Below are positions 29,328 through 61,346 of a stretch of 62,017 bases of DNA, piece by piece (the stretch's first letter is position 1; each line of letters starts with the position of its first letter). The notes under the pieces were generated by a model that made no database searches, had not been told where the DNA came from, and saw nothing but the letters and a program-made list of their open reading frames with translations. A program made the translations under genes and the position numbers. The DNA comes from Candidatus Kuenenia sp. GTDB lineage: Bacteria > Planctomycetota > Planctomycetia > Planctomycetales > Planctomycetaceae. The DNA lies in assembly GCA_043775985.1 (NCBI GenBank), contig JAYVRU010000320.1, forward strand, positions 1-62,017, read 5' to 3'.

Positions 29328-29410
29328 TGTGAACCAATCAGATTTGAGCTTGTTTATCCCGTAGCAAAAGATCAGACACCACCGAGCTCGGACCTGCGTT
29401 TGACGGATGA

Positions 29411-31450: not shown

Positions 31451-31484
31451 ATTGTCAGTGTCTTTCGAAATGATTTCTTCTATT

Positions 31485-31679
31485 GAGCCACAAGGCGCTA
31501 GCCGCGGATGTTGTATTTAGTCCTACCCGAGTTACTTCCGTTTAACCCGACTCGAAGAGGAGGCAGGGCACTTCATAACCTCCTCTGCGAGTCGGGTTAA
31601 ACAACTCGATGAACACGTGCCTGGCCGCTCGTGTCGTCACATGATTATATCAACACCCGCGGCTAGCGCCTGGCGGCTC
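31485..31679. repeat. Composite element A: REP unit (fwd), 24-bp-stem hairpin, REP unit (rev)
   Basis: Forward unit gagccacaaggcgctagccgcggatg at 31485-31510. Hairpin arms gtttaacccgactcgaagaggagg (31540-31563) and cctcctctgcgagtcgggttaaac (31579-31602), with 1 mismatch. Reverse unit cacccgcggctagcgcctggcggctc at 31654-31679, abutting the stop of paralogue 5. Confidence 0.9.
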
Positions 31680-35394: not shown

Positions 35395-35562
35395 GCGAGC
35401 CTCAAAACGCTTGCGGCCTGTTGATTTTGTCGCTCAATCAGCTGCTGGAGGCTAACCCACGTTTAAATTTGCTGTGTTTTTTTGGCAAAACCGGACGCTA
35501 GCGCGTTCCGGCTGATTTCGGTCGATAATTAATCAACACCCGCGGCTAACGCCTTGCGGCTC
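35395..35562. repeat. REP cluster: degenerate units, a type-2 unit and a type-1 reverse unit
   Basis: Type-2 unit ccggacgctagcgcgttccggctgat at 35491-35516. Type-1 reverse unit cacccgcggctaacgccttgcggctc at 35537-35562. The stretch aatttgctgtgttttt...aaaaccggacgctagcgcgttccggctgatt...aatcaaca is collinear with 56714-56780. Confidence 0.85.
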
Positions 35563-35636
35563 ACGGGAAGTTCACAAGACAGAGTCGCACCAGCATATCG
35601 ATTCACGTATGAATTTTCTCCTGCAGTAATAGGAAT

Positions 35637-38294
35637 CTACCTCTCTGGTTTGTTTTCTGCCTTTGTTTCAAGGTTCATTGCTGGACCTGTCATGCGTTGT
35701 GCTCGGATGCGGAGATTCTTCCAGATGATGCTGACTTTGCTGACACCATCAACACTGGAGTTCATTCCCGCGACCAGCCTGGCTCCGTCGAATCGAGACG
35801 GCTGCGTGGCCGAGTCTTCAACGTGGATAAGCCGGAATACAGTCGATTTTTCCGGGGCAAACATTGTGTAAGTCTTGTCCGCTCGTCGCGCGAGACGCAG
35901 TGTCCCCGATGTCACGGCTTCGGACCGCTTGTCAAGGAGTCCCTGATGAAACGGCTTGAGCTGCAGCAGGTCATGGTTGACCATTTTTTGCGGAAACTTG
36001 CCTGGATCAACATTCGTGGTCATCGAAGCTGCATGGTGACTGATCGGTTCGTCGGTGAGAGCCATTTGCAGCATTGCGTGGCAGAGTCCGTGTTTTGTGG
36101 GATTGATGTTTAGTTCCTCAAACGCAGCCGTAATGTCGAAATCACCTTCCACAACCAGCAACGGCGTCACGCAGACTCGACTATAGCCCTTGCCATTCAT
36201 TTCAGCATTGATGTGCAGACCATCGGCCTTCGCTTTCACATACTTGTCAGCCCCCTGATCCTGAATCTGAAACAGATTCAGCGGCAAGCCATTTTTCGCG
36301 AAGTTATGAGAGAACTCCGCCGTGAGCTGCGGTAACCCGGCGTCGAGTTCATCGGTTGTTTTGTCTCGAAGTTCCTGATCATGCAGCGCGGGCAATGTCT
36401 TCGGCCAATCACCCCGCCACCGCACGTTGCGAACTCGGATTTCTGTGTCGCCTTCATAGTGAAACAATCCAAAGATCCGCTCGTTTCCTTCGGCGTCCAT
36501 CGTACCACGATAAACCAATTGGCCATTCACCAACACCTCAAGCACGTCACGACGAATCTTTAGCAGCGTATGATTCCATTCGCCTGCCTTGAGCAGCAAT
36601 GGGCTCAAGGCAGAATCATCTGCATCCGGACGACGCTCATTGAGTGGGTCGGCACCGGTGCGATCGAAATGAGCGTCGGTGATGCGATGAATCATGACGC
36701 CTTCGGGATCAAGCAGCAGGACATCGCGGCCAATCGCAGGATGGACGTGTGACTTTTCTGGCTCAAAGAAGAATTCGTAGTCGATCTCACCATCTTCCAT
36801 TACAGGACGTTGATACTGCAGCAGACTTTCTTTGGCAGTCCCGGATCTCGATGCCGTATTGAGCCCCACAATCATGCCAATTCCCGACGCGTCGGTTTCA
36901 TGCCACCAATCATGTTCACTTCGATCACCGATGCCGCCGCCGTAGTATGAGGTCCAGCCGTGAAGCTGATTGTTGTCTGACAACCTGAGCGTGTCTGGAA
37001 TCTGCGGATTTCCCGTGATACAGAGATCCCGAACTCGACCAAACGTCGAAAATGGGACCCGGATCGCAAGCCACGGATCGTGACTGACCGGCAGCGTCTC
37101 CTCATGCACCAATCGACCATCGAGATAAAACGAACAGCGGTTGTCTCTGACCCTGGCCTGAAGCCGCATCCAATCGGTGATCTCGGACAATCGCGGACTG
37201 ATCTTTCCGATCGGCAGTTCACTGCCCACGTGACCCGCAAAATACGCGTCGTGCGAAAACGCGGGGACGACCCACGTACCAGCGACGAGCAATTGAGCTT
37301 CACGATAGTCAAAACCAGTCGACTCGCATTCAATCTCATAGTCGCCCGTTAACGGGCTGCGAAAATACAGGTAGTCATCGTTGTGGTGGGACAGCAGCCG
37401 GACCGATTTTCCGTCCCAGTCCCAATGTGCAACAGGGAAGCCGAGACCATGCGTCCCGAAGTCCTTCGCACTCACTGGAAACCATTCGTGCATGCGTGGC
37501 GCGTCGCCGAACTTTACCACCTGCAGTACCGTTTGCTTGTAGAGACTCAACTGCCCCAGCAATGACGGAATCAAACGATCCCACGAATCCGGGCCGTTGT
37601 TCTTTACTGATCGAATCTGTTGCTGCAGCATCCGAAGAAGAATCTCTTCGGTCGGTTCGCGAAGTCGCGCATGATGAATCGCTTCCGCCACAACAAGCGT
37701 CTCTGGCCACCGATCCTGTAGATCGACAAACACAAGTCTGCGATGCCGGTCGTAAAGATCATTCATCGCTTCACTCGCTGCGGCGAAGTCATCGTCGGCG
37801 ATATTTATCAGAGTCAAAAGGGCCAGCCGGGCTCGTTGCTGGGATTCAGTCTGACTTGAAATCGCGACGGTTCGCTCGCGGAGGTCAGCGACTCGCCCTG
37901 ACACTTTCGCCGCTGCAATCAAATCGAACACAGGTGATACAAGGCTGTCTGAGGCACGACGCTCAATATTTTGAGCAGTATTGGATGCGAAATGGGCGGT
38001 GAGCCGAATTGAGTCATGGCTCTGCGATGGCAACACCCAGTCTGTCAGAGTCCTGTATCGTTGATCAACCGGGAGCGAAATCGAGTTGTCGACAATATGG
38101 TCCGTGTTGTCGGCGAGGACAGTTTCCTCAAAGAGAACGCCGATCGTGCCTTGCATTGGCTGCTTGACCGTATTCCGTTGCGCTGGCTGTGCGGCGAATG
38201 GTTCGCCCTGTGACTGACCGTTCGCCACTTTTATAGCGATCAGCAAAATCAAAATGAATTGGCTGAAATATTTCATCGCCCATAAACGAAACAT
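35637..38294 (-). CDS. Paralogue 6 of 7: DUF1583-like core plus one GDFD module
   Basis: Family motifs: QRYRTLTDWVLPSQSHDSIRL, DSLVSPVFDLIAAAKVSGRV, HHNDDYLYFRSPLTGDYEIECES, DPWLAIRVP...ITGNPQIP, LLQYQRPVMEDGEIDYEFFFEPEKSHVHPAIGRD, IFGLFHYEGDTEIRVRNVRWRGDWPKTLP. One module contains EGDFDITAAF. Confidence 0.9.
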   Translation of the reverse strand: MFRLWAMKYFSQFILILLIAIKVANGQSQGEPFAAQPAQRNTVKQPMQGTIGVLFEETVLADNTDHIVDNSISLPVDQRYRTLTDWVLPSQSHDSIRLTAHFASNTAQNIERRASDSLVSPVFDLIAAAKVSGRVADLRERTVAISSQTESQQRARLALLTLINIADDDFAAASEAMNDLYDRHRRLVFVDLQDRWPETLVVAEAIHHARLREPTEEILLRMLQQQIRSVKNNGPDSWDRLIPSLLGQLSLYKQTVLQVVKFGDAPRMHEWFPVSAKDFGTHGLGFPVAHWDWDGKSVRLLSHHNDDYLYFRSPLTGDYEIECESTGFDYREAQLLVAGTWVVPAFSHDAYFAGHVGSELPIGKISPRLSEITDWMRLQARVRDNRCSFYLDGRLVHEETLPVSHDPWLAIRVPFSTFGRVRDLCITGNPQIPDTLRLSDNNQLHGWTSYYGGGIGDRSEHDWWHETDASGIGMIVGLNTASRSGTAKESLLQYQRPVMEDGEIDYEFFFEPEKSHVHPAIGRDVLLLDPEGVMIHRITDAHFDRTGADPLNERRPDADDSALSPLLLKAGEWNHTLLKIRRDVLEVLVNGQLVYRGTMDAEGNERIFGLFHYEGDTEIRVRNVRWRGDWPKTLPALHDQELRDKTTDELDAGLPQLTAEFSHNFAKNGLPLNLFQIQDQGADKYVKAKADGLHINAEMNGKGYSRVCVTPLLVVEGDFDITAAFEELNINPTKHGLCHAMLQMALTDEPISHHAASMTTNVDPGKFPQKMVNHDLLQLKPFHQGLLDKRSEAVTSGTLRLARRADKTYTMFAPEKSTVFRLIHVEDSATQPSRFDGARLVAGMNSSVDGVSKVSIIWKNLRIRAQRMTGPAMNLETKAENKPER

Positions 38295-38362
38295 GTTCGT
38301 CGTCCAGTCAAAGTCTGGCAGTATTCACTTTGCCCTGCGGCGAGTGTATCAAAATGCTGACG

Positions 38363-43661: not shown

Positions 43662-46331
43662 TCAAGGCGGCCAGCGTCGGAACTGATAGGGCGGAAAAAC
43701 GTTGGTGCAGCCACGTTTGCTTTTGCCGGTCAACGTCAGCAGGCTGCCTTCGCTACCGCTGACGGATGCAGCGGCAGTGACAATCGCGGGGGCAGCGTTG
43801 ACGACCGGCCCTTCAACAGCACCGATGTCCGGCCGACCCACACCGCGACTGAAAGCGTTTACCGGGCGCACTTGTCCTCGTTGATCCGTGCTTCCGTTCA
43901 ATAGGGAATCTCCGGCTTCCAGTGCGGGGCTGTCTGGCAAAGGCAGATGAGTCAGTGTCGGCCCACCGTTATCCGCGAGTGGCCCCAGTCGAGGGTCAAT
44001 CCGGTTCAGGAAATCGCCAACGATATCGGTGCCTGATCCGGACCAGCCGACCGCCGTGCCCGACAATAGGTTTTACCCGCCGGACAGCACATTCGAAGCA
44101 TTCCGAGAAAGAACCGTCTGAGCGGAGTTTCCAGCGATAATCGAATTGTGGACGGTGACTGATCCGGCATTTGAAATCACCGGCAGCACAGCCGCTGCAC
44201 TGGCTGCTGTTCCATTACCTGTTATTGTTGACTGATCAATCAAAAGCGACCCCGTCGAGATTGCGGCAATCTGCGATTGCCCGGAAATCGTTGAGTTCAC
44301 AATCGAACCGCTGGTCATGCGAACTCCGTGTCCGATCCCGTTGGCGATTGTTGATCTTTGGAGGGTGACCGTAGATTCCGAATCTATAGTGTAACCTTCA
44401 TTGCGAAGCAGTTGAGACTGAGAGACAGTTAGAGGCACAGTCGCATACACCGTCGCTCTCTGCCAAAGCGCATCGGTCAAACGATTGTCGTGAATGAATG
44501 AATGAATTCTCAAGGCGTCCTCCCGGGGCTCGTCCCGCGAAAACAACGCCAGCACCATTGGTAGTCGTTGTCAGGGGATGAACAACAGTGTCTGCGACGG
44601 TCACGTTGCGAAACACAATCTCGGACAGGCTGTTGGAGTTAACACCGATCCCGCCGCCCCACTGAGTTCCAACTCTGTTGCCCAAAACTTCACTGTTCTC
44701 CACGATTACTGCGCCAGAGCCCGGACTATAGATCCAGGCTCCCCAGCCGTCGGGTGCGTTCACGCTGGCCTGAGGGCCGTTGCTGTTGAAGTGACTGTTA
44801 TTGACGGTGGCAGCATTGATCGAGTACGCCAACAACCCAAAACCTGCATTCCCGGACGAAATCCACTCGTCGTGCCGGACCAGTTTCGGTCAAATCGCGA
44901 AGTGGACACACTGGTCGATCCCAGTGTGCCCGACAGCACCGTTCCATAGGACGTATTGCCTGTTGCCGTCAGACCGGAAATCACTGCACCATCGAATCCG
45001 AACAGATCCATTCCCAGCCCGATATTGCGCCGCGATTCACCGCCGGAAAACGTCAGACTCGGCAACGCTGCACCAGCAGCAAGTATATTCTGGCCTATCA
45101 GCGTTCCCGTCCGACCATTGTCATTCGTCGTCAGACTGGCAAGAGAGACATTCCCCGTCATGTTCGTCAACAGGATGCCCCAGAACGAATTGTGGTTGGC
45201 ATTGATTCCCGATAACTGGGCCGTTCCGGCAATGCCGATGGCTGCAAACCCGGCCGCCAAATTATTCAAAAATTCGCCGCCGGACACAGAGACAGAATTT
45301 ACATCTGTCGCGAAGAAACCGTCGAAATCATTGCGATTTGCCGTAATATTCTGTCCCGCGACGCTGCCATGGCCCTGCCACACAACGAAGCCTCTTGCGT
45401 TATCGCTGGCTTCCACGTTAGCCAGAGTCGTTGTTGTGACCATATTCAGATATGCACCGATGCCAGCGTTGTTGTTAAACGATGAGTTGCTGACGTTGAC
45501 GGTGATGTTGCTGCCGACATCAAGGCCGTTACCTGTCGCGCCGTTCACTGTCACATTGTTAGCCGTCAGAACTGCCGGTGCGTTGATCGGCGGCGTTGGA
45601 AAACCTGTGCTGCTGCGCGTGGTGTTAGAGACAAACAGTCCCGTCCCGGAGACCACTCCGACGCTCAAGCCATTGATACTCAACTGATGAACCCAACTGG
45701 CACTGACGCCACCCCCATTGGGATTGTCGATCGAGACCTGGTTTAACGTGGCCGTCCCGATGTCGCTCAGGTCGATGCGACCGCGAATCGTCGCTACATT
45801 TGTCGCCGAAAACGAATGGAGACCAATCAGCGACAGAGCGGTCCCCGGACCATTGAGCATGTTGATGCTGATATTCTCCAGCGTCAGGTTTCCGGATCGA
45901 CGGTAAACGTCGTTACCCACCCCAAAGCGGTTGACTCCGATCGCGAGGGAGCCTGTTGGCCGGAGCTGAAAATTCCTGAACGCGGTCGTGCCAAATGGCG
46001 CACTCAACGTCAGCGGGAATGAGCCGGTAAGAATCGGGCGAGACACCGCATCGCCGATCACAGTCACTTCGCCTGGGTCGCTCACCGACACGATTTCTTC
46101 ATAGGTTCCGGCTGCAACCTGAATCTCATCCGTACCAGCATTCGCTTTGGCTGCCTCAAGAGCCGATGCAATCCGTGTAAATGGATTTTCTGGGGTCCCT
46201 GTGCCGCCGACCTCGCCGGTCGCACTTTGTTGCACATGAAAAACAGCCAGCAGTACTTTCTGCTCCAACTGCTCAGTCGTGAAGGAATTTCGAACAGTAC
46301 GACGACGTGAATAGATTTGCCCGCGAAACAT
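43662..46331 (-). pseudogene. Disrupted right-handed beta-helix / choice-of-anchor-Q-type secreted adhesin-like gene
   Basis: Four collinear ORF pieces: 44760-46331, 44398-44835, 44073-44558 and 43662-44066. The N-terminus has the planctomycete TTEQLEQKVLLA motif. It is followed by many beta-helix repeats (NNAGIGAYLN, NDFDGFFAT, NHNSFWGILL, ENSEVLGNRVG, HNSIIAGNSA) and then RIDPRLGPLADNGGPTLTHLPLPDSPALEAGD. The frame changes twice (end-coordinate mod 3 goes 2, 0, 2). There is an in-frame TAA at 44073-44075 (...NVLSGG*NLLSGTAVGW...). Confidence 0.75.
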
Positions 46332-46854: not shown

Positions 46855-46964
46855 GGTACTGGTCGAGAAATTACTGTCGGATTGTCGCCTTTCGCTCTGC
46901 GAAAGTTGCGTTGCTTTCGCGAAGCGAAAGACGACACTACCATCGAGCGGATTATTACCGTCTT

Positions 46965-47027
46965 ATCAGCCGGAACGCGCTAGCGTCCGGTTCAGGGAAA
47001 ACCGTGAGCTAGCGCTCTGCGGCTGAT
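46965..47027. repeat. REP type-2 unit (reverse) plus a hybrid unit
   Basis: atcagccggaacgcgctagcgtccgg (46965-46990) is the exact reverse complement of the type-2 unit at 35491-35516. gtgagctagcgctctgcggctgat (47004-47027) is a hybrid or degenerate unit. Confidence 0.8.
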
Positions 47028-47086
47028 TTCAGTCACGACACTTATTGATCGCTCGATGCTTATACGACAGCGGAAAGTCATTCCGC

Positions 47087-47868
47087 TCATGGGGTATCTG
47101 AGGTGGCCGACTCCTTGAATGGCGGCTCAGCTGTGAACACGATTTGACGTCCGTCCGGTGACCAGGCGCAGTCGATAATTCGCCAGTTGCGTGGCTGGCC
47201 GGGAACGGAGACTATCGTTGCAGGTTTGTCGCGTTGCCCGGTGATACGGACGTTTTTCACAATGCCAACACCGCTGCTCGGATTGCGAATCGCGATCCAC
47301 GGATCATGCTCTGTCGGTAGTTTCTCCTGCAGAGCAAATCGACTATTGATGTATCACAAATCAATTCATTGCCCGTGACGCGAATGATGTTTGGTTTCTC
47401 AGTGTGCTCGTCATCCGGGGAGGCAAAGTAATCGATTGTCCAGGTGCCTTGAAGAGACTTGAGTCGTGCGGCGATTTCTTCAGGCGCGCGTTGATTCAGA
47501 ACGGAGGTCGTCTCGGACGCCGCTCCCTCTTGTCCAAGCGCCTGTGGAAACATCGATTTCAATTGCTCCACGGGCGCCGCCAGCAGCAGATTTCGCATGT
47601 CGAGCGACTGCTAAGTCTGCAACAGGCGAGTCTGCATCTCGAGCAGCTCGGCCCGCAGCAGGCTTTGTCGCAAAGTGAACGCTCGCCGCAAGGCCGTTCG
47701 CAGCTCGGCGTTCTTCCCCGCATCCGGAGTTTGCCGAAGCGACGCAGCCAGATCATGAGCCTGCTTGTTGGCGGTTTCGTAGTCGATTCGCAATTGAACG
47801 ATCTTCAACGCGATAGGGTTTGTTGCCGTGTCCGTTGCTGGTTCAGCTTCTTCTGACGAGCGTGGCAC
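47087..47868 (-). pseudogene. Chimeric pseudogene: coiled-coil / LQGTW-domain N-part (in-frame TAG) fused to an internally deleted paralogue-5-like fragment
   Basis: The minus strand reads ...RAELLEMQTRLLQT*QSLDMRNLLL..., with a TAG at 47611-47613 in frame with ORF 47257-47598. It continues ...LKSLQGTWTIDYFASPDDEHTEKPNIIRVTGNELI. After a frame change it reads YINSRFALQEKLPTEHDPWIAIRNPSSGVGIVKNVRITGQRDKPATIVSVPGQPRNWRIIDCAWSPDGRQIVFTAEPP...*. The DNA at 47111-47215 matches 31681-31790 and 47228-47345 matches 34011-34150, at roughly 80-85% identity judged by eye. Confidence 0.7.
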
Positions 47869-47944
47869 CGGAAAATTCGTATCTTCCCAACGTGGGCGTT
47901 TTTCAACGGATGCTGGTTCGGGCGGTGCGAAGAATTCCCCTGCC

Positions 47945-48388
47945 TCAGTTCCCTCTCATCCTATGTAAGCCATGACCAAAGGCAATCTGCACTGCTTCGC
48001 CGCCGTTCGTGCAGCACTTTCGATTCTGTGCAATTCGTCGGTCATATATCCCGGGTGTGCATGCAGGATGAGAGCATTTTGTTCCTCTTCCCCCGTCAGT
48101 TCGGACTCCTCCCGCGTGGAAGGAGATCTGCTGAACTCCGACGTTCCTCAGGGCTTCGATCAACTGCTTGAGTTTCTCGTACGACTCATCGCTTCGCATG
48201 CCAAGAGTCACGCTGATCGACGAATTTGCGGGTGGAGCTGTCTCCGCAGTTTTCCCCGTCGCAATCCCTGCCCTCTCAAGAGCCTCTACGACCTGTTTGA
48301 CGACATCGGACTGCTGCGCGTCAGCGTCTATCACAAGAACGATGGCCTTCGATTCCAACGGGATGGCTTCCTTTGCGGGTTCGTGCAC
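47945..48388 (-). CDS. Hypothetical ORF (weak, possibly frameshifted)
   Basis: 147-aa ORF. The first 95 aa look protein-like (AIVLVIDADAQQSDVVKQVVEALERAGI...ISVTLGMRSDESYEKLKQLIEALRNVGVQQISF). The C-terminal third is Cys/Arg/Gly-rich, and an alternative frame reads more naturally there. Confidence 0.3.
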   Translation of the reverse strand: MHEPAKEAIPLESKAIVLVIDADAQQSDVVKQVVEALERAGIATGKTAETAPPANSSISVTLGMRSDESYEKLKQLIEALRNVGVQQISFHAGGVRTDGGRGTKCSHPACTPGIYDRRIAQNRKCCTNGGEAVQIAFGHGLHRMRGN

Positions 48389-48872
48389 TGCCTTTGAATG
48401 TGGTACGCCTCACGGAGGGCTGACGCATGACGTTCGGATGCAGGATGGTGGCGGTGGCCAGACGGCCCGATCTAGTGTAGTGAGTCCCCGCACGGGCCAG
48501 GAACTCACGCACAAAAAGAAAAGAATCCGAAAAGAATCCACGGGATGATGTTGAGCCAAAATCCGAAGGCACCCGCGTTTGTGAGGAGCACCGTCAGAAA
48601 AAGCCATGCGAAAAAAGCCTGCCTGCGGCCCGATGTCAAACGAGAACGCCGTTCGGATATCGACTCACGACTCGGCCCGTGGCAGCGTTCGCGGAGTTGT
48701 GCGATCCTCTGCTCAAGTGTCTCATGTGGGTTGCAGCCATGGTGATCGGCCTCTTCCATCGACAGAAAGATCGACGGGTAAGTCTCGAGGACTCACAGAC
48801 CACCGCACACAGCCGCCCACTGACGCACAACGTTGTGTGATGGGGGGCCTTTTTGCGGGTCGTATTCTTAGT

Positions 48873-48948
48873 GAGCCGGCGGAAGTGGTGCCATATAGAG
48901 CCTTCGTCAACTGACGAAAGAATTGGCACCACACCAGGCGGCTCGCGC
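48873..48948. repeat. Nested long palindrome with REP-like termini
   Basis: Outer ends gagccggcgg... and ...ccaggcggctc. Middle arms gtggtgcca (48885-48893) and tggcaccac (48924-48932). Inner perfect palindrome ttcgtca-ac-tgacgaa (48903-48918). It lies just downstream of the minus-strand DUF1579 gene. Confidence 0.75.
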
Positions 48949-48983
48949 CGCTTCGCAACAATTGGCACGTGCGGTCTGCGGCA

Positions 48984-49574
48984 CTATTCCTTCACCCGTT
49001 CGTAGACTGTCTCGACCGCCTTCGACTCCTGGTCGACCATAATGTTGTACGCGGTAATCGTCAGATGATCGGCGTCGATTAATTCGTAGTCCGTTCGCCA
49101 TCCACCCTGGGGTTGGTCAACCGCCCAGTCGTATTTGCCAGAAACCGAAAAACCCCGCTCGATCGCATCCCCTTCGCTGATCAGGATCGCACTGCTCATG
49201 TGAAAATCGTCGAACCAAAAGACCTGAAACTTCTTCGTCACGTCGTTCATCGCCAGAGTTTCTTCGCCATGTCGCGGTTTGCCGCGCATCGATCCTTCGT
49301 AAGTGTGCCGAAAGAAGTTTCCGTTCAGCAGCGACACGATCTCACCCGAGACTTTCGATTCATCGACCAGTTTTCCCGGCTCGAACCATGTTTTTACTGT
49401 CCCCTGCCACTTCCCAACACATTTCCCGAGAAATTTTTCCGGTTCGGCCATCTTCTTTGTCGCTTTCTGTGTTGATTGTTTGTCCACCGATTCGGCATCA
49501 CGATTCTGCCCTATGGCATGTGTGGTGACAATGAATAAGCACGCGACAAGGAACATTTTCGTAAACAGTCGCAT
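48984..49574 (-). CDS. DUF1579-like secreted protein
   Basis: Signal peptide: MRLFTKMFLVACLFIVTTHAIG. FLGKCVGKWQGTVKTWFEPGKLVDESKVSGEIVSLLNGNFFRHTYEGSMRGKPRHGEETLAMNDVTKKFQVFWFDDFHMSS fits the G.W.G....W..PG......G......G.F....Y.G...G....G......D.....F...W.D pattern I recall for DUF1579. I prefer the internal ATG at 49574 (AAGGGCGGA upstream). Confidence 0.75.
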   Translation of the reverse strand: MRLFTKMFLVACLFIVTTHAIGQNRDAESVDKQSTQKATKKMAEPEKFLGKCVGKWQGTVKTWFEPGKLVDESKVSGEIVSLLNGNFFRHTYEGSMRGKPRHGEETLAMNDVTKKFQVFWFDDFHMSSAILISEGDAIERGFSVSGKYDWAVDQPQGGWRTDYELIDADHLTITAYNIMVDQESKAVETVYERVKE

Positions 49575-49930
49575 TGGTCCGCCCTTTGATAAAGACAAGA
49601 TAACGAGAACGGCCGAACTGGAATTCAATGTAATCGGAACATCTGTCGCAACCTGGATGAAGAAAATCCACGATCACGATCTGCACTCAGTCGCCGCAGC
49701 ATACGATTTCACTCTGGAAATACGCAGCAATGCGGATAAAACGACCGTGACCAAGGGAGTGCGTACGCGATTTTTTCGCCAGCTTTCATCAAACTCGGCA
49801 GACGGAAGCTGAGTGCACATTCCGGTGGGAACTGCCAAAATCGGGCTTTGATCGTTAACCTTCTGGCATCGGCTGACAAATCCCGGAAAATCGTCGCATG
49901 ATTGGTGCCTGGTCTGCGACATAACAGCAA

Positions 49931-50626
49931 TTGCTGAACAAAAATCCGGTGCTGCCACTGGGGGTAAGAGGAAATGAGGCCCGATTGAACGATTCTGCTC
50001 TGGTCGAAGGACTTCGTCGTCACGACCCGGCGGCAGTGAAGCATCTGAGTGATTGCTTTCTGCCTTCGGTTTGGCGCTTCGTCTACGTCCGGGTGAAAGG
50101 CGATCGGCATTTGGCGGAAGATATTGTCAGTGAATCAGTGCTGGCGTTGATTCGAGCTGTTTCGGACCCGGAGTTGGAGATTGGTAATCCAATCGCGTGG
50201 CTTAGGTCGGTCGCGGCTCATAAGGTCGCCGACCATTTTCGCGCGGCGGCTCGAGTGCAGCATCTGATCGATCAAGCCAGGCACACGGCTCCTGTAAGTC
50301 TTGGCCACGATGCCGTACAGGCGCAGGAGTTACAGGAACGTCGCGACGAAATTCGGCAGGTGCTGGATCGCTTGCCAGAGCAGACTCGGCTGGCTCTGGA
50401 GTGGAAGTACATTGATAAGTTGAGTGTCAAAGAAATTGCCGCACGGCTGGATGTGAGTGAAAAAGCAGCGGAGTCGATTTTGTTTCGCGGTCGGAAGGAG
50501 TTTCGACAGCGAATATTGATGAAGGAAGAACAAGACAATTCCCCTACCGCCACGAGCTGCAACGGTTGCCGTCAGAGGATTGAGAATAGCGAACGGGTAG
50601 AAGAGCAAACAGATGTGGTTTCATAA
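49931..50626 (+). CDS. ECF-type RNA polymerase sigma-70 family factor
   Basis: Region 2-like segment: DRHLAEDIVSESVLALIRAV. Region 4: LPEQTRLALEWKYIDKLSVKEIAARLDVSEKAAESILFRGRKEFRQRI. The track start at 49931 is TTG. In-frame alternatives are GTG at 49949 and TTG at 49985 (AGAGGA upstream). Confidence 0.85.
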   Translation: MLNKNPVLPLGVRGNEARLNDSALVEGLRRHDPAAVKHLSDCFLPSVWRFVYVRVKGDRHLAEDIVSESVLALIRAVSDPELEIGNPIAWLRSVAAHKVADHFRAAARVQHLIDQARHTAPVSLGHDAVQAQELQERRDEIRQVLDRLPEQTRLALEWKYIDKLSVKEIAARLDVSEKAAESILFRGRKEFRQRILMKEEQDNSPTATSCNGCRQRIENSERVEEQTDVVS

Positions 50627-50649
50627 TGTAGTTTCCTGGTACAGCTTCA

Positions 50650-53181
50650 ATGATTAATTCCAACATGAACAATGCATCGCCGGAAACGGTGGACGATCGC
50701 GAGCTGGAGGAGCTGCTCGCAGGAGCCCTGGATGCGCCGCCGGTTCCGCGGTCGCTGCTGAAGCGGCTTGACCAGGGCATCGAAAACGTATGGGGCGAGT
50801 CGCCTCGTCTGGCTGATTCTCGGGCAGACAGGCTGCAGCGAAGGTTTACCCAGGGTTCTCGCTGGGTCCGCGGTCTTCCGATCGCAGCGGCAGTTGCGGT
50901 AGCCGTCGTCTGTGTTGCCTTGATGAATAGTACCGGAACGGCCTACGCATGGTCGTCCATGTTGAGCGCGTTGAGGCAACAGGGAATTGTGGAGTATCAG
51001 CAGAACGGTGTGACTCGCTGGTTATCGTTGTCAGAAGGTCTGGTGAGTGAATCGACGTCGGAATCCTGTGTGCTGCTCGATACCAATAAGAAGATTGTCC
51101 TGCGGCGGCTGCATGACGGAAACGTGATTGAACGTGAATCGTTGACGTTTGAGAACAGTGAAGCTCAGGATCGCCTGATGTTCGCCTTCTTCGCTGGAGA
51201 TTCCGATGGAGCATTTTCCGGTACGTCGGCAACAATAGTTGATCGGGGTTGGGAAGAAATCACGATCGACGGCAAGTCACAAGTTCAGTTGAACGTCTCC
51301 TGCGAGTCAGGTGGCGCTCCGACGAAATTGCATATCCTGGTGGACCCGGAGACGCAACTTCCGTTGGCGTGTGAAGTTCCTGAAGCCGACGATGATATCG
51401 CAGCAACGTCGGCGGTAGTTACAGCATCCCGCTTTCAGCCACTCACCTATTCCAGCGACGTCGCTGCAACTCGGGTCGCGGCAGTGTTTCCCGACGACAT
51501 GCCGATTGCTGATGTCACACCCGCCGATGAAATCAAGACAGCTTCGAATGAATCGCCAAAACCTGCTCGACGAGCGGTTGCTGCCGTCGATCCTCCAAAA
51601 GTCGATGGCAAGGCTGCGACAGATCCTCATGGTGGTGCTCCGTTGATGGGTGACGCCTCAAAATGGCGAGCTGTTCAGATTCAGCCAAGTGCCACGGGGA
51701 ATGCGGTCCAGGATCTTGATCTCCTGCTGGCAAGGCTGTGGGAAGAAAACAGCGTGAAGCCTGTGGGGCTGGCTTCAGATGAGGAACTACTTCGTCGCGT
51801 CTATCTGGATCTTGCTGGTCGCACTCCGAGCGTCAACGAGGTTCGCGATTACCTAAAGAATACCTCTTCGGACCGTTACGAATCACTGGTGAGCCGGCTA
51901 CTCGACAGCCCGGACCATTCAAGCCATCTCGCGGCGAAGTTTCGATCGTTCCTGCTTCCTGAGGGTGTGGACCTGACAAGCTTCGGTGGTGTCGAAGCCT
52001 TCGAAAAATGGCTGGCCGCTCGCTTCCAGAGCAACGAGCCTTACGACAAAACAGTCCAGAGCCTGTTGCTCGCAGAAGGTCGTCTGGCTCAATCGGGGCC
52101 GTTGTTGTTTTATTCAGCGACGAAGCTTGAGGCCGATCAGCTTGCGGGTCGAACGGCTCGAGTGTTTCTCGGGATGCGGCTGGAGTGTGCTCAGTGTCAT
52201 GATCATCCGTTCGAACCGTGGACTCAGGAAGACTTCTGGGGCTTCGCTGCCTTCTTCGCTCGCATCTCGCGACCTCGTGGCAAACTGGAAACCGTCTCCA
52301 CGGTGATGCAGGTTCGAGACGTGGATCGTGGTGAAGTGATGATGCCTGAATCTAAGGCGGCTGTTCTGCCTAAGTTCCTGAATGCCGACAATGTTCTGAC
52401 GGATGAGAAGTCGAATGCCCGCCGAAAGAAACTAACAGCGTGGCTGACGGGCAGTGACAATCCGTACTTCGCCCGAGCGACAGGCAATCGAGTCTGGTCG
52501 ATGCTGTTTGGCAAGGGGATTGTAAATCCGGTGGACGATTTTGGTGTAGGCAACCCACCGCTGTCACCGGAATTGCTCGATCTTCTTGCAGGCAACTTCA
52601 TTAAATCAAAGTTCAATTTGAAGGAACTGTTTCGAGTCGTCGCATTGTCAAAAGCTTACCGTCTTTCCAGCGGAGCTGAAGAGGCCGACGAGCTTCGCCA
52701 GGATTGGTTTGCTCAGATGAACGTGAAGATGCTGACGGCCGAGCAGGTCTATGACTGCATCACCGTGGCCACGATGCCAGGCTCGACTCAGACAACCGAC
52801 ATGACAGGCCTGGTGACTCGCTTCGGAAACGTTTCGCGAGACGAATTCCTGCGTGATTTCAGAACGCCATCGGGTCGTTCAACAGAGTATCAGGGCGGGA
52901 TTCCACAGGCGTTGACTCTGATGAATGGAACTCTGATCGATAGTGCAACGGGGCTCGCATCCAGCGGCTTGTTAAAGTCTCTGCAGGCTCCGTTCTTCAC
53001 TCGAGATCAGCGGATTGAGATCGTGTACTTTGCAACATTGTCTCGTCAGCCAAAGCCTTCCGAGAAAGAGCTGCTGAGTCAGTATATCACCGAAGATATG
53101 TCCGGTAACGATCTCCGTGAAGCGTTGTCGGATGTGCTCTGGGCACTGTTGAACAGTGCTGAGTTCACGATGAATCATTAG
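50650..53181 (+). CDS. Membrane-anchored DUF1549/DUF1553 (PSD1-type) protein with an anti-sigma-like N-terminus
   Basis: It starts 23 nt after the sigma stop. A roughly 80-aa cytoplasmic-looking head is followed by a TM helix (GLPIAAAVAVAVVCVALM). The DUF1549 signature is LWEENSVKPVGLASDEELLRRVYLDLAGRTPSVNEVRDYL. The DUF1553 signatures are FLGMRLECAQCHDHPFEPWTQEDFWGFAAFF and NPYFARATGNRVWSMLFGKGIVNPVDDFG. Confidence 0.85.
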   Translation: MINSNMNNASPETVDDRELEELLAGALDAPPVPRSLLKRLDQGIENVWGESPRLADSRADRLQRRFTQGSRWVRGLPIAAAVAVAVVCVALMNSTGTAYAWSSMLSALRQQGIVEYQQNGVTRWLSLSEGLVSESTSESCVLLDTNKKIVLRRLHDGNVIERESLTFENSEAQDRLMFAFFAGDSDGAFSGTSATIVDRGWEEITIDGKSQVQLNVSCESGGAPTKLHILVDPETQLPLACEVPEADDDIAATSAVVTASRFQPLTYSSDVAATRVAAVFPDDMPIADVTPADEIKTASNESPKPARRAVAAVDPPKVDGKAATDPHGGAPLMGDASKWRAVQIQPSATGNAVQDLDLLLARLWEENSVKPVGLASDEELLRRVYLDLAGRTPSVNEVRDYLKNTSSDRYESLVSRLLDSPDHSSHLAAKFRSFLLPEGVDLTSFGGVEAFEKWLAARFQSNEPYDKTVQSLLLAEGRLAQSGPLLFYSATKLEADQLAGRTARVFLGMRLECAQCHDHPFEPWTQEDFWGFAAFFARISRPRGKLETVSTVMQVRDVDRGEVMMPESKAAVLPKFLNADNVLTDEKSNARRKKLTAWLTGSDNPYFARATGNRVWSMLFGKGIVNPVDDFGVGNPPLSPELLDLLAGNFIKSKFNLKELFRVVALSKAYRLSSGAEEADELRQDWFAQMNVKMLTAEQVYDCITVATMPGSTQTTDMTGLVTRFGNVSRDEFLRDFRTPSGRSTEYQGGIPQALTLMNGTLIDSATGLASSGLLKSLQAPFFTRDQRIEIVYFATLSRQPKPSEKELLSQYITEDMSGNDLREALSDVLWALLNSAEFTMNH

Positions 53182-53192
53182 TGTAAGTAATT

Positions 53193-53302
53193 GAGCCGCA
53201 AGGCGCTAGCCGCGGGTAATTTCCTTATGTTTTTAAGACTCGCACCCGCAGCTAGCGCTTTGCGGCTCACAAAATCAACAACCTCCTGGCGCCTTGCGGC
53301 TC
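53193..53302. repeat. REPIN-like doublet plus a half unit
   Basis: Forward unit gagccgcaaggcgctagccgcgggta at 53193-53218. After a 24-nt spacer, reverse unit cacccgcagctagcgctttgcggctc at 53243-53268. Half unit tggcgccttgcggctc at 53287-53302. Confidence 0.9.
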
Positions 53303-54844: not shown

Positions 54845-56644
54845 ATGCAGCCTTTCCATTCTATAATCAAATTTTTGAAGCGTCTCGCGATAGTCGGACT
54901 GCTTTCACTCGCAGCATTCTCAGCCGCACAGGCTGACGAAAACGAACTCACTGTCCCTGTGCGAATTCTCGGCGCTCCGGCTCCCGAACCAGCGATGGGG
55001 CCGATGATGGTGGCACGCGAAGAAGCACCGCCGGCGACTCCTGCTGCGAAGATGCCGCAATATCAGTTGCATCATAAGGATCTCGGCGATCTTGGCGACC
55101 CGTCGTCGCCGCACATTCGATTCGTGCTCGCGCTGCCCGAAAAGCCTCTGCTGATCGAAGCCGCAATCTTCATTGATGGCCAGCCGTTTCGACAGGCTCG
55201 GGAAAAACGAGTTCAGGAGATCATGCGGTACATCTCCGATCCCGTTGCCTTCAACGCCGAAGCGGCAAAGATTGCAGCGGAAGCTCAAGCGGCTGCTACT
55301 GCCGCTGAGGCGACGAAGAAACTGGGGCTTTTGGAATCAGTCGTCAACCTAGTGACCGGCAACGAGGCAGCAGCCGAAACAACTCCGCAAGTCACACCGG
55401 AAAAAGATCAAACGCCTGCTCCAGAAGAAGCGACTCCGGATGCAAAGGCCGAGGCAGTCGAAACACCAGATCCTGCAGAAGAAAAGCCAGAAGCCGCGAC
55501 TCCAGAGCCCGAGACGCCCGCTGAACCAGTTGTTCCGGCAACGCCCAAATACTCGGCACCTGCCACGATCTACGAACGCATCGAACGTTACACAAAATCT
55601 ACCGGCACGCCGCCGAGCGTCGATGAAGTTCGATGGTTGCTCACAAACTGGGTGGATGGCCCGTTGCTGTTGTTCCTGAACGACAACTTCCAGCGTTTCC
55701 GAGCCGACCAGCAGCCTGTATTCAAAGTCCTTGATCGAGATCGCGACGGCATCGTGTCGGCTGACGAATTGACAAAGGCCGTCGCGGCGTTTCAGGAATG
55801 CGATCTCAATCGTGACGACATGGTCGATGCCACCGAACTTGCTGAGGCGGCGAAAGATGTTCGCGATCAGCCAACGAATTCAACGGGCAAGCTGATCTTC
55901 CGCCTTCCTGATGAGAAAACCGCGACTGTTTTTCTGCGTCGCGTGGCAGCTCACTATGTGGCTCCGGATGCAAAGTTACCAACACCGCCGCAGTTCGATC
56001 CGGACAGCGATGGTGTCCTGTCTCCTGAAGAACTCAAGCAACTCCAGGAACGCCCGGCCGACGTTCGTTTAAAGATCGAACTGACGACCGGCCAGCCGGA
56101 AGCATCTCGATTGACCATCGACGGATTCAGCGACGAGTTTGCCGGACTGAGGGACTCGACGAAGAAGAATCCATCGAGCATGACGCTCAACTTCCCGTCG
56201 TTCAATCTGGAATTTCTGGCCGCACAAGGAGCCAGCAGCGATCAAATTTCAATAGGAGCTGTCAATGACGGCTACGCCATGCTTCAGGAAATCGATCCGA
56301 ATGCCGACGGTCGATTTTCGATCCGCGAGCTGCGGCAGTTGAATGAACGCCTCGCAGCTTTTGATCAGAATTCCGACGGACAAATTGGATCCGGTGAGAC
56401 TCATCCGACGTTTCGAGTCTGCATCGGCCTGGGACCGACGGCCCATCAGCCGCTGGCGTTGTTGCGTGAAATCAATTCACCGAGCGCGGCAGCTCAGGAA
56501 CCTGGCCCGGATTGGTTCATAGAGATGGATAAGAACAAGGATTACGATTTAACTCGCCAGGAGTTTCCTGGCACAGACGAACAGTTTAAGCAGCTTGATA
56601 GTGATGACGATGAATTGATCAGTTCTGTAGAAGCCAATAAATGA
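54845..56644 (+). CDS. Secreted multi-EF-hand-like (Ca-binding loop) protein with a Pro/Glu/Ala-rich linker
   Basis: Signal-like N-terminus: IVGLLSLAAFSAAQA. The linker reads ...PEEATPDAKAEAVETPDPAEEKPEAATPEPETPAEPVVPATP. Seven D-x-(D/N)-x-D-type loops are present: DRDRDGIVSADEL, DLNRDDMVDATEL, DPDSDGVLSPEEL, DPNADGRFSIRELRQL, DQNSDGQIGSGE, DKNKDYDLTRQEF, DSDDDELISSVE. Confidence 0.8.
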   Translation: MQPFHSIIKFLKRLAIVGLLSLAAFSAAQADENELTVPVRILGAPAPEPAMGPMMVAREEAPPATPAAKMPQYQLHHKDLGDLGDPSSPHIRFVLALPEKPLLIEAAIFIDGQPFRQAREKRVQEIMRYISDPVAFNAEAAKIAAEAQAAATAAEATKKLGLLESVVNLVTGNEAAAETTPQVTPEKDQTPAPEEATPDAKAEAVETPDPAEEKPEAATPEPETPAEPVVPATPKYSAPATIYERIERYTKSTGTPPSVDEVRWLLTNWVDGPLLLFLNDNFQRFRADQQPVFKVLDRDRDGIVSADELTKAVAAFQECDLNRDDMVDATELAEAAKDVRDQPTNSTGKLIFRLPDEKTATVFLRRVAAHYVAPDAKLPTPPQFDPDSDGVLSPEELKQLQERPADVRLKIELTTGQPEASRLTIDGFSDEFAGLRDSTKKNPSSMTLNFPSFNLEFLAAQGASSDQISIGAVNDGYAMLQEIDPNADGRFSIRELRQLNERLAAFDQNSDGQIGSGETHPTFRVCIGLGPTAHQPLALLREINSPSAAAQEPGPDWFIEMDKNKDYDLTRQEFPGTDEQFKQLDSDDDELISSVEANK

Positions 56645-56793
56645 GCCGCAAGGCGCTAGCTGCGGGTGTTGATCTAGTCTGTTTATCAGCCGCCGGGCGC
56701 TAGCCCCCGGTTGAATTTGCAGTGTTTTTGTACCGAAAACTGGACGCTAGCGCGTTCCGGCTGATTAAATCAACAGCCCGCTAGCCGCGGGTG
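56643..56793. repeat. REP cluster (type-1 fwd, variant, type-2, truncated type-1)
   Basis: gagccgcaaggcgctagctgcgggtg at 56643-56668, overlapping the TGA of the EF-hand gene. cagccgccgggcgctagcccccggtt at 56687-56712. ctggacgctagcgcgttccggctgat at 56740-56765. cagcccgctagccgcgggtg at 56774-56793. Confidence 0.85.
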
Positions 56794-59066: not shown

Positions 59067-61346
59067 GTGGGTTTTCTGAGTATCACATTTCTGGTCGCTT
59101 TGCCTTTAGCATTGGCACCGATTCTATTGCACTTGTTTGATCGTCGACGCAATGTCACGATCGAGTGGGGAGCGATGGAATTCCTGCTGGATGCCGCCAC
59201 GCGCCGGACGAGTGCTCGAAAGCTCAAGCAATGGCTGTTGCTGGCTCTGCGAGTCCTCGCGATCGCCGCGTTGGTGCTGGCGCTGGCAAGACCGAAACTG
59301 CCGGGGCATTGGTTCGGAAACAACGATCGAGGCGAAACAGTTTTTGTCATCGACAATTCGATGTCCACGCTTCGCGAATCGGAAGACTCGACGCTCTTCG
59401 CAAAACTCATTGTACGTGCGACCACAGAACTGAATGCGATGCCGTCTGGCGACACTGTTCGCATTCTGCTGGCGTCACCTTATCCGGTGTGGGCGACGGC
59501 CGGGGATTTGCGAGTTGACTCAGGCTCGCGAGACATGCTTGCCGAGCAGCTTAAGGAGATCCGTCCAACTAATGGAAGCAGTGATCTGCTGGCGGCGATG
59601 TTTACAGCCGTGCAGGCGGATTCAGAACAGAAGACTGAAAAGCGTCGCATCATTTTGCTCACCGATGGTCAGGCGGCGGACTGGAAAACGGCGGATACCA
59701 GCGGCTGGCAGCGATTTCAGGAAGTACTCAAGTCGGCAATTGTTCCGACTCAACTGGACGTGATTGAACTGAACGCGAAAACTGCCAAGTCGACAAATAT
59801 CGCGGTGAACACGCTACGATCGAATCGCCTGGTAACGGGCATCGATCAGACGTTCACAGTCACCGCGCAGATTCAGAATCACTCGGCCGTCGATTCTCCG
59901 GGCTGCACGGTCTCGTGGCAGGTCGGAACGCATGAAGAACAGACGGCCGAAGTTCCATCGTTGACCGGCGGCAATACACATGAAGCTGTTTGGCGTCATT
60001 CGTTTTCAAAGCCGGGCGTCTATTCACTTTCTTGCCAACTCAAAGCAGATGACAATCTCGCGCCCGACAACCGCGCGACGGTTGTGATTGAAGTCATCGA
60101 AGAAGTGCCGGTGCTCGTCGTTGAAAGCGCAGCGGGCCAGGCAGAACTTCAGCAGGATGCATTCTTTCTTCAGGCCGCGATGGGATGGATCAACGGCGAA
60201 GCGATGGCGGCTCACAGTGTCTACCGACCGGTCACTGTCAGCCCTGATCAATTGGAAGGCATGAGTCTGGCTGAGTACCGAGCCGTCATTATCCCAAACT
60301 TCACAGCGATCTCGGAACGGTCGGTTGCAGAGCTGAAGGCTTTCGCATTCAACGGTGGCGGCGTCTGGATTGCGCTTGGTCCGCGAGCCGACATCGAAAT
60401 GTTCAACCAGTACGTGTTTGCTCATGGTGACGGATTGTCTCCGCTTGCCATTGATGGGATCGTCGCTGAGCAAAGTGCCGATGCCGCTCCGAAGATCAAT
60501 GCCGGGTTGCGAGAGCATCCGGCGACGATGGCTTTGGCAGACAACGAAAAGCTGGACACGAGCGATATTCGAGTCCGTCGTCGATTTCGATTTGTGCCGC
60601 CTCCACGTGATGAAGATGTGTCGGCCTTGTTGAGTCTTACCAACGGCGAATCGCTGGCGGTCGAAAAGTATGTTGGGCAGGGACGAGTCATCGTGCTGGG
60701 CATTCCTTTAACGATGCGCGACTGGAGTGAGCTGGCGAAGTCTCAGGCGTTTGTTGTGATGGTGCAGGATTGGGTGGCGTATCTGACTCAGCCTCAGGCG
60801 ACGCGGCATAATCTTTCGCCCGGTGACCCTATTTCCGTGCATCTTGCTGAGACCGATAACCGCGACGCGTTTCTGAAAACGCCACACGGTGACCAGATCG
60901 AACTGACGGCCGACACGGTTCCTGATGGAGTCATCTTTCGCTCAAGCCGGACAATTTTGCCAGGGGATTACAGCTTGCAGTTGGGTCTTTCGGGAGATTC
61001 CATCCCGTTTCATGTGCAGCGAAATCCGAAGGAGTCGAATCTCACAGGGCTTTCCGACGAGGATCACAAGCTTCTCGCGGATACGGCTGGCTTGAGTGGC
61101 AGTTTGTTAAATCCGAATCTGAGCAGTACCAGTCAGAGCGATCCAGTCTGGCCGATGCTGTTGATGATGTTGATCGCGTTTATGAGTTTTGAACTGATTC
61201 TGTCTGGAATGATTTCTCGCGAACGTTTCGGCACTGCCGCGATCTCGGAGACATCGGAGAGAATTGGCGACGCCGGTTTTTGGATGCCGGTAGAGTTTGG
61301 GAAGAAGACCGTCTCCCGTGAGCCGCAAGGCGCTAGCCGCGGGTGA
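59067..61346 (+). CDS. BatA-N / von Willebrand A domain membrane protein
   Basis: GTG start. The N-terminal double-TM aerotolerance-type motif is FLSITFLVALPLALAPILLHLFDRRR...EWGAMEFL. The vWA MIDAS motif DxSxS is VFVIDNSMST. There is a C-terminal TM (VWPMLLMMLIAFMSFELILSGMI). The last 9 codons (REPQGASRG*) are encoded by the REP unit at 61320-61345. Confidence 0.9.
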   Translation: MGFLSITFLVALPLALAPILLHLFDRRRNVTIEWGAMEFLLDAATRRTSARKLKQWLLLALRVLAIAALVLALARPKLPGHWFGNNDRGETVFVIDNSMSTLRESEDSTLFAKLIVRATTELNAMPSGDTVRILLASPYPVWATAGDLRVDSGSRDMLAEQLKEIRPTNGSSDLLAAMFTAVQADSEQKTEKRRIILLTDGQAADWKTADTSGWQRFQEVLKSAIVPTQLDVIELNAKTAKSTNIAVNTLRSNRLVTGIDQTFTVTAQIQNHSAVDSPGCTVSWQVGTHEEQTAEVPSLTGGNTHEAVWRHSFSKPGVYSLSCQLKADDNLAPDNRATVVIEVIEEVPVLVVESAAGQAELQQDAFFLQAAMGWINGEAMAAHSVYRPVTVSPDQLEGMSLAEYRAVIIPNFTAISERSVAELKAFAFNGGGVWIALGPRADIEMFNQYVFAHGDGLSPLAIDGIVAEQSADAAPKINAGLREHPATMALADNEKLDTSDIRVRRRFRFVPPPRDEDVSALLSLTNGESLAVEKYVGQGRVIVLGIPLTMRDWSELAKSQAFVVMVQDWVAYLTQPQATRHNLSPGDPISVHLAETDNRDAFLKTPHGDQIELTADTVPDGVIFRSSRTILPGDYSLQLGLSGDSIPFHVQRNPKESNLTGLSDEDHKLLADTAGLSGSLLNPNLSSTSQSDPVWPMLLMMLIAFMSFELILSGMISRERFGTAAISETSERIGDAGFWMPVEFGKKTVSREPQGASRG

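Follow-up and report, generated by a model that had tools for sequence, protein, structure and literature searches.

How does a fragment of a large gene come to lie outside the tandem array of its closest relatives, joined to part of an unrelated gene and only a short distance from a pair of palindromic repeats? The question is raised by a contig of Candidatus Kuenenia sp. (GenBank assembly GCA_043775985.1, contig JAYVRU010000320.1, positions 1 to 62,017 of the forward strand), the whole of whose 62,017 nucleotides (nt) is referred to below as the window. Seven tandem paralogues of the DUF1581/DUF1583 family, all with a DUF1583_N domain, occupy 19966-41743; the fifth, paralogue 5 (31678-35349), encodes 1223 amino acids (aa) with DUF1581, DUF1583_N, DUF1583 and PD40 domains. 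A first-pass annotation had recognized parts of this gene again at 47087-47868, and proposed that they were a chimeric, internally deleted copy of it, possibly mobilized by repetitive extragenic palindromic (REP) clusters. The locus is indeed a chimera: a paralogue 5-type gene, now dead and with internal sequence deleted, has been fused to a part of a different gene. The minus-strand tract 47087-48388, about 1.3 kb long and made up of four pieces in the order A-B-C-D, is in our estimate (probability roughly 75%) a composite pseudogene into which two resident genes of the same orientation have decayed through successive deletions. The biology is that of ordinary gene decay, and a deletion breakpoint shared with a related genome is its only non-trivial lead.

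A composite tract of four pieces

The paralogue 5-like pieces are real. A blastn comparison of 46901-48000 with the whole window returned two strong matches on the strand of paralogue 5: 47120-47208 against 31684-31772 (88.8% over 89 bp, E 5e-28) and 47238-47311 against 34028-34101 (85.1% over 74 bp, E 3e-18). Pairwise local alignment, by which the breakpoints were placed, lengthened piece C to 47353 (paralogue 5, 34143) and piece D to about 47236 (paralogue 5, ~31800). The two pieces are joined in frame (ITG/QRD, the slash marking the junction), and ~2,226 nt of paralogue 5 lie between the two matches, in keeping with the ~2.2 kb first reckoned to be missing; the peptides quoted at that time were reproduced on translation. 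Where the first-pass annotation fell short was in the extent of the locus, whose decayed part reaches a further ~520 bp upstream, to 48388.

The pieces, their order, their orientation and their lesions can be read directly from the DNA. All four share a strand and follow the order of their parent genes, A before B in the upstream gene (gene 1; the order is read from the related contigs L008-L010, L013 and L024) and C before D in paralogue 5. A random patchwork would give this combination about once in 32 times, whereas successive deletions predict such an arrangement. The tract combines homology to intact protein-coding genes (paralogue 5 at the E values above; relatives of gene 1 at 81-88% nucleotide identity) with a frame disrupted by a TGA, a TAG, a frameshift, a frame change, the loss of start codon and signal peptide, and three large deletions. 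From these features we infer that it is non-functional and has no functional product now. The sequence was found solely in DNA metagenome runs, and its pieces are too short to date the loss of constraint. The open reading frames (ORFs) 47087-47260, 47257-47598, 47611-47868 and 47945-48388 are accordingly better annotated as one composite pseudogene than as four hypothetical proteins (Table 1).

The arrangement also recurs outside the assembly. One 673-nt Logan contig in each of two sediment-metagenome runs equals 46999-47671 with 0 differences at ~8x word depth, bridging the A/B, B/C and C/D junctions, and a 5,572-nt contig (L001) is 100% identical to 47650-53221. The same chimera was sought in related genomes and not found: scans of genome contigs (3 loci) and metagenome contigs (5 loci) with the read-through mosaic recovered no second example, and protein searches were equally negative. 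A word-indexed search of 5.8 billion proteins revealed none that joins C directly to D and gave only one match, P0008. A phmmer search of 1.84 billion representatives gave 7,520 matches, in which PD40 repeat proteins predominated, and the best 150 of these included no contiguous C-D architecture. Nor does the window hold further DUF1581/1583 debris outside the array besides 47120-47353, the other weak matches being translated REP units.

Table 1. Components of the composite tract, their counterparts in paralogue 5 and the adjacent repeats (window coordinates)
Feature	Position	Strand	Description and basis
Inverted REP pair, REPIN-like	46964-47028		nhmmer E 1.4e-7 and 4.4e-7; metagenome word depth ~5,800
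3' flank homologous to that of the L016 gene	47075-47086	-	Alignments, ~12 nt
Piece D	47087-47236	-	Last PD40 strand and tail FKESATSDTP; stop codon 47087-47089
C/D junction	47236-47238	-	In frame; one orphan G at 47237; ~2,226 nt of paralogue 5 gone
Piece C	47238-47353	-	Last ~39 codons of DUF1581 (YINSR...NVRITG); Pfam DUF1581 E 1.4e-6, 28.8 bits
B/C junction zone	47354-47362	-	Gene 1 fused to paralogue 5-like gene; frame changes; possible GTTT/TTTGT microhomology, <=4 nt
Piece B	47363-47591	-	End of middle domain, linker and first ~35 aa of TIGR03067-like domain (LQGTWTIDYF...IIRVTGNEL)
A/B junction	47592-47593	-	In frame, ...QSLDMR joined to (N)LLLAAPVEQLK; <=~2 nt microhomology
Piece A, coiled-coil segment	47593-47871	-	47849-47593 85% over 257 nt to P0002 gene of L004/L005/L006
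In-frame TAG within coiled coil	47611-47613	-	CAA (Gln) in relatives
Gene 1, second segment	47897-48096	-	aa 145-215 of L024 protein; tblastn 65% over 95 aa
In-frame TGA	47956-47958	-	AYIG-stop-EGTEAG against AMRGLEGTEAG in L024
Frameshift zone	48097-48107	-	Small indels, net -2 nt against L024; alignment of window 48351-47897 with L024 5585-6041
Gene 1, first segment	48108-48388	-	aa 47-140 of L024 818-aa protein; tblastn 70% over 94 aa
Paralogue 5 counterpart of piece D	31684-31800	-	blastn and alignment
Paralogue 5 counterpart of piece C	34028-34143	-	blastn and alignment

The upstream pseudogene

The sequence upstream of piece C had been described as an unrelated N-terminal part. Unrelated to paralogue 5 it is, but it is no intact N-terminus: it is a second pseudogene that carries five further lesions and extends to 48388, and to which the 147-aa "ORF" 47945-48388 belongs. 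Used as a protein query, the read-through N-terminal part retrieved a handful of relatives, and these define a family of secreted multidomain proteins that combine a signal peptide and N-terminal domains with a coiled coil, at least one LEGDW/LQGTW lipocalin-like domain and a middle domain whose end reads ...GDLFLVVPVSQLKTMFP. Against the L024 member, 48351-47897 aligns at 81% over 458 nt (blastn), the homologous peptide resuming in another frame beyond 48097-48107, and piece A is 88.5% identical at 47714-47593; piece B matches L002 at 81% over 229 nt and L003 at 85% over 162 nt. Blocks A and B belong to one gene family, as L008-L010, L013 and L024 show, and in L008-L010 and L013 a single gene tract contains both, separated by 0.7 to at least 1.7 kb. 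The frames upstream of 48388 offer neither a start codon nor a signal-peptide-like sequence, and contain an in-frame stop. The in-frame TAG reported earlier is present.

The LQGTW segment had been likened to the start of a TIGR03067-type domain. The assignment holds up indirectly, through the homologue in L002: once its single frameshift is bridged, this homologue covers profile positions 7-106 of 107 in TIGR03067 (E 1.2e-8, 35.2 bits). The window piece alone goes unscored, scans of the N-terminal part with the hidden Markov models (HMMs) of NCBIfam and Pfam giving no TIGR03067 or other match at E<=1. The curated cut-off of 40.15 bits is reached neither by the L002 homologue nor by P0006 (29.4 bits), and the L024 protein has weak Secretin_N and Lipocalin_4 matches.

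The family is broken in most of the relatives retrieved: there is a frameshift in L002 (177-745), a 116-nt deletion of the TIGR03067-like domain in L003 (231-629), a frameshift and a stop in L008-L010, and a frameshift in L013 (7818-9889), only L024 showing a long intact ORF (818 aa). Separately, word depth rises to ~55 (flanks 8-13) at 47639-47705, over a coiled-coil motif, AFTLRQSLLRAELLEMQ, that is common to several genes or organisms of the sample; the Logan contigs end here (47650-47671).

The parent of the paralogue 5-like pieces

Of the seven window paralogues, the fifth is closest to pieces C and D (71-79% aa identity), followed by paralogue 6 (49%). The two pieces, here called the remnant, no longer amount to an intact member of the family, since the DUF1581 match covers positions 13-59 of 84 only and neither DUF1583_N nor DUF1583 is matched. 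The further claim that the remnant is a copy of present-day paralogue 5 did not survive comparison: paralogue 5 is without the remnant's tail of 10 codons and the ~12 nt of 3' flank behind it, and the differences between the two are mostly synonymous. A codon alignment of C and D counts 21 synonymous and 10 non-synonymous differences (pS 0.47, pN 0.07), corresponding to a ratio of non-synonymous to synonymous divergence (dN/dS) of ~0.10 at dS ~0.73. Against a model of fully neutral divergence such a bias has P = 2e-7; with neutrality assumed for the whole of the remnant lineage only, P <= 8e-4. Most of the divergence therefore arose while both genes were functional, and this bias together with the foreign tail identifies the parent as a once-functional, paralogue 5-like gene.

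The tail itself is informative. The remnant ends ...EPPFKESATSDTP before its stop codon; paralogue 5 in the window ends EPPP-stop and has no such tail. P0008, the sole match of the search with the C-plus-D peptide, ends ...VPGQPRNWRIIDCDWSPDGRQIAFTAEPPFKESATSDTP, identical to the tail of the remnant, and lies on the L016 contig of the metagenome-assembled genome GCA_043774905.1. There, a stretch of 127 nt (10338-10464) that takes in the tail and a few bases beyond the stop codon matches the remnant at 92.9%. The identity of piece D is 92.1% with L016 and 88.8% with paralogue 5, and five substitutions place it with L016. In L026 and L027 the EPPP-stop is followed, as in the window, by the paralogue 4 orthologue (in L027 the order is p5-p4-REP-p2). 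Two types of 3' end therefore exist, and the remnant is of the non-EPPP type. Piece C retains states common to the outgroup L027 (WIAIRNP), while window paralogue 5 and L016 share derived states, so that the parent of the remnant split off before the window and L016 genomes diverged. A recent intragenomic copy of paralogue 5 would contain nothing that its donor lacks and would be closest to that donor, a description that the remnant does not fit. Judged by these alignments, the parent is a long-tailed, paralogue 5-like gene rather than today's paralogue 5.

Junctions

The A/B boundary (...ATGCGA/AATCTGCTG) is placed where homology to the L004 family stops, at 47593, and homology to L002 and L003 begins, at 47591; most simply, a single gene would here have lost 0.7 to at least 1.7 kb of internal sequence with its frame preserved. 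The frame change that had been noted where the N-terminal part meets piece C was confirmed. On a short alignment, the B/C junction may originally have been in frame and later have lost 4 nt. The C/D boundary reads ...ATCACCGG/G/CAACGCGAC. Microhomology, for which a search had been suggested, is possible at the junctions to the extent of 0-4 nt, but could not be firmly assigned because the available proxies for the parental sequences are 11-19% diverged.

REP units and other repeats

The proposal that REP clusters serve as recombination or mobilization substrates for this gene family rested on their proximity, and the underlying observations are accurate. No array member but paralogue 5 is flanked by REP units on either side (31482-31513 and 31651-31681; 35486-35517 and 35534-35564), and the pair in Table 1 lies 59 nt past the stop codon of the remnant. 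A census with an nhmmer model built from 16 strict-core units (core GCGCTAGC) places this proximity in perspective: the ~30-nt palindromic family has 20 units at 10 intergenic sites of the window (22.2, 31.5-31.7, 35.5, 41.95, 47.0, 53.2, 54.7-54.8, 56.6-57.0, 61.3-61.4 and 61.96 kb), and by a rough gene list about 10 of the 15 spacers between 20 and 62 kb hold units. The pair 59 nt away thus carries no weight, given that 10 window spacers hold such units; the association does not rise above background density. Moreover, no junction lies in or beside a unit, the nearest unit being 46998-47028 and the junctions 47236-47238, 47354-47363 and 47592/47593. Homology between the 3' flanks of the remnant and of the L016 gene stops ~47 nt short of the pair, and no unit occurs downstream of the L016 gene. 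The suggestion that REP elements shuffle the DUF1581/DUF1583 family is thereby removed.

A related idea, that insertion of a REP unit cut off the tail of paralogue 5, was rejected. The genes of L027 and L026 end EPPP-stop with the REP 15-20 nt further on, and since they have this ending without any overlap, the short tail predates the REP overlap seen in the window.

Several units of the window do run into coding sequence. The leading TGA(GCC) of unit 31651-31681 is the stop codon of paralogue 5 (31678-31680), that of unit 56640-56671 is the stop (56642-56644) of an EF-hand gene (54845-56644), and unit 61318-61346 contains the last codons of ORF 59067-61346. The pair 22190-22270 lies inside the mechanically called ORF of paralogue 1 (19966-22401), whose homology to the other paralogues runs from ~22119; the true start of paralogue 1 is probably downstream of the pair, to judge by that alignment. 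Translated units give spurious protein matches at 53.2 and 61.3-62.0 kb. Two further palindromes are distinct from the REP family. One, at 46884-46935 (GTCGCCTTTCGCTCTGCGAAAG and its inverted copy), adjoins the REP pair and occurs once in the window, although its metagenome word depth of 340-990, against ~10 in the flanks, marks it as a multi-copy repeat in the community; the other, a long palindrome (cccgagttacttccgtttaacccgactcg...cgagtcgggttaaac), is nested at 31527-31600 between the two units downstream of paralogue 5. Array content also varies among relatives: paralogue 6 is missing in L016 (8278-8437 against window 35406-38359) and paralogue 3 in L027 (6003-6085 against window 26009-29420), with a REP pair in the former spacer and units in the latter.

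Truncated relatives of paralogue 5

Truncation of paralogue 5-type genes is seen elsewhere. The L016 orthologue (8500-10459), whose 3' end is that of the remnant and not of window paralogue 5, has its own out-of-frame internal deletion of 1.72 kb and is called as two ORFs (506 and 152 aa); the deletion joins positions equivalent to paralogue 5 34025-34028 to 32301 through a GCGA microhomology. A third truncated derivative stands in L026, where 177-545, directly upstream of the paralogue 4 orthologue, encodes a 122-aa ORF (P0158) made of a signal-peptide-like leader and the last 85 aa (last 265 nt) of a paralogue 5-type gene.

A proposed history of stepwise decay and its alternatives

The history that we propose starts from two genes head to tail on the minus strand. 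Gene 1 would have encoded a secreted multidomain planctomycete protein with a coiled coil and TIGR03067/lipocalin-like domains, and gene 2 a full-length DUF1581/DUF1583/PD40 protein close to paralogue 5, with the other type of 3' end (...EPPFKESATSDTP). After its separation from the paralogue 5 lineage, gene 2 appears to have stayed functional for the greater part of the time, as its differences from paralogue 5 are biased to synonymous sites. The losses themselves are visible in the DNA. Gene 1 is without its 5' end, is shifted in frame once, is interrupted by two stop codons and has undergone an internal deletion that keeps the frame. A deletion runs from inside the last TIGR03067-like domain of gene 1 to codon ~403 of gene 2, and a further in-frame one of ~2.2 kb has removed the DUF1583 domains of gene 2 and most of its PD40 propeller. 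These deletions were presumably ordinary illegitimate events, either blunt or with <=4 nt of microhomology. Decay in place is favored because gene 1 bears several independent point lesions and because piece D runs through its native stop into its native 3' flank.

Several observations weigh against so simple a course. Divergence is patchy along the remnant, with scrambled patches of 12 nt and ~28 nt, and pieces C and D group differently with L016, on small counts; together these indicate that the history includes gene conversion or more than one donor. A three-way branch-length test likewise makes C and D seem of different age, a fragile result given few counts and clustered substitutions. The tract lies between a beta-helix gene (44760-46331) and a DUF1579 gene (48984-49571), and no relative with the same flanking genes was found in which the two genes could be seen side by side: orthologues of the DUF1579 flank (81-82% aa identity) sit in unrelated neighborhoods in L017-L020, from which the ancestral spacer cannot be read, and neither L013 nor L024 has gene 1 next to a DUF1581 gene. 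The A/B and C/D junctions, two out of three, are in frame, for which chance gives about 1 in 9, and the fusion could briefly have been under selection; the lack of expression is an assumption. Finally, the left end of the L016 deletion coincides, within resolution, with the left end of the C/D deletion (34028), which simple random deletion does not predict. The DUF1581 match stops precisely at this shared site, directly after ...NVRITG, and a rough estimate puts the chance of sharing it at ~1.5%, six possible comparisons allowed for. From that site on, both genes have lost their DUF1583 module. The right ends differ (~31800 in the remnant, 32301 in L016), and hairpins offer no explanation, single-strand DNA folds at three paralogue 5 breakpoints and at the remnant junction being unremarkable (z -0.8 to +0.4). 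That the base after DUF1581 (paralogue 5 34025-34028) is a recurrent deletion hotspot in paralogue 5-type genes is unlikely; if true, the hotspot together with L026 would point to sequence-directed or selected removal of domains rather than random decay.

Conceivably, one complex repair event, by template switching during replication or break repair, stitched short templated segments of a paralogue 5-like gene and of gene 1 into the spacer. The shortness of pieces C and D (~115-150 bp), junctions with 0-4 nt of microhomology and one orphan base, the different relations of C and D to paralogue 5 and L016, the scrambled patches of 12-28 nt and the unobserved ancestral adjacency would all suit such an event. 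Yet it accounts poorly for a single strand and parental order throughout, for ~1 kb of gene 1 with the scattered point lesions of a resident gene decaying in place, and for a piece D that reaches its natural stop codon and native 3' flank, and its donor would have to be a diverged functional gene that is no longer in the window; on balance it is unlikely. A piece of present paralogue 5 copied or moved 13-15 kb with REP clusters as substrates, and internally deleted afterwards, could draw on the REP units that this gene alone in the array has on both sides, on the pair near the 3' end of the remnant, and on the units in the spacers from which paralogue 6 (L016) or paralogue 3 (L027) is absent. 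It is nonetheless very unlikely, as proximity is expected by chance with 10 window spacers holding units, no remnant junction lies in or beside one, and homology to L016 runs ~12 nt past the stop and ends ~47 nt before the pair. Tail and flank are moreover missing from paralogue 5, piece D is closer to L016, and a dS of ~0.7 with a dN/dS of 0.10 excludes a recent dead copy.

There is still less reason to regard the 57-aa ORF 47087-47260 or the 113-aa ORF 47257-47598 as a live gene for a new chimeric protein. The two in-frame junctions, the few remnant-specific changes in piece D (2 in 89 nt) and the precedent of P0158, with its leader and C-terminal 85 aa, speak for one; however, neither ORF has a complete domain (DUF1581 13-59 of 84; one PD40 strand), the GTG with which the 57-aa ORF begins is internal to the old frame, the searches recovered no homologue of like architecture, the 113-aa product had no record on exact look-up, and the D-branch counts (2, 8, 5) are not significantly unlike equal branch lengths, all of which makes such a gene highly improbable. 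Least credible is a mosaic produced by misassembly. The window is a metagenome contig, and the Logan contigs break at 47650-47671 in the multi-copy coiled-coil motif (depth ~55), but a 673-nt contig in each of the two runs spans all three junctions with 0 differences, L001 continues at 100% identity from 47650 to 53221, and <=4 nt of microhomology is too little to mislead a k-mer assembler. The reading that we prefer remains the decay of two resident genes by successive deletions, with some gene conversion or a second donor in its course.

Relation to known systems

A paralogue 5-like gene with another 3' end once existed, and paralogue 5-type genes have been independently truncated in at least two related genomes, so that the locus documents turnover (birth-and-death) of the DUF1581/DUF1583 array in a planctomycete lineage. 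The same two families are decaying elsewhere, the paralogue 5 type in L016 and L026 and the gene-1 type in L002, L003, L008-L010 and L013.

REPINs are inverted REP pairs that are mobilized by RAYT transposases (PMC3116915, PMC3337134). As in that system, the window units are often inverted pairs in intergenic spacers, and the family also occurs in related contigs; in contrast to it, the units are here neighbors of the remnant and not components of it, and no junction involves one. No RAYT gene turned up among the ORFs scanned, no systematic search for RAYT having been made.

At the level of protein families, piece C corresponds to the end of DUF1581 (28.8 bits, cut-off 27) and piece D to the last PD40 repeat of the DUF1581/DUF1583 paralogues (PF07619, PF20407, PF07622), from which the remnant differs in lacking DUF1583_N, DUF1583 and nearly all of the propeller, and in its long-tail 3' end of the L016 type. 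With TIGR03067 (Planc_TIGR03067) proteins the tract shares the LQGTWTIDYF...IIRVTGNEL segment, homologous (81-85% at the nucleotide level) to the domain start in L002 and L003; it differs in that ~35 of ~105 residues survive, with no HMM match alone, and even the complete relative scores below the cut-off. Microhomology-mediated (illegitimate) deletion is exemplified in L016, which joins two GCGA tetranucleotides, and 0-4 nt are possible at the remnant junctions; in the window, however, the microhomology is not firm (proxies 11-19% diverged), and one orphan base is present.

The tract also resembles bacterial pseudogenes formed by deletional decay, familiar from Rickettsia and Mycobacterium leprae and from the deletional bias of bacterial genomes. 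Like them, it combines homology to functional genes with a lost start, stops, a frameshift and large deletions, keeps parental order and strand, and has shrunk, in this case from ~6-7 kb of coding DNA to ~1.3 kb. It differs from them in that two unrelated neighboring genes have been fused, and in that two of the three junctions are in frame.

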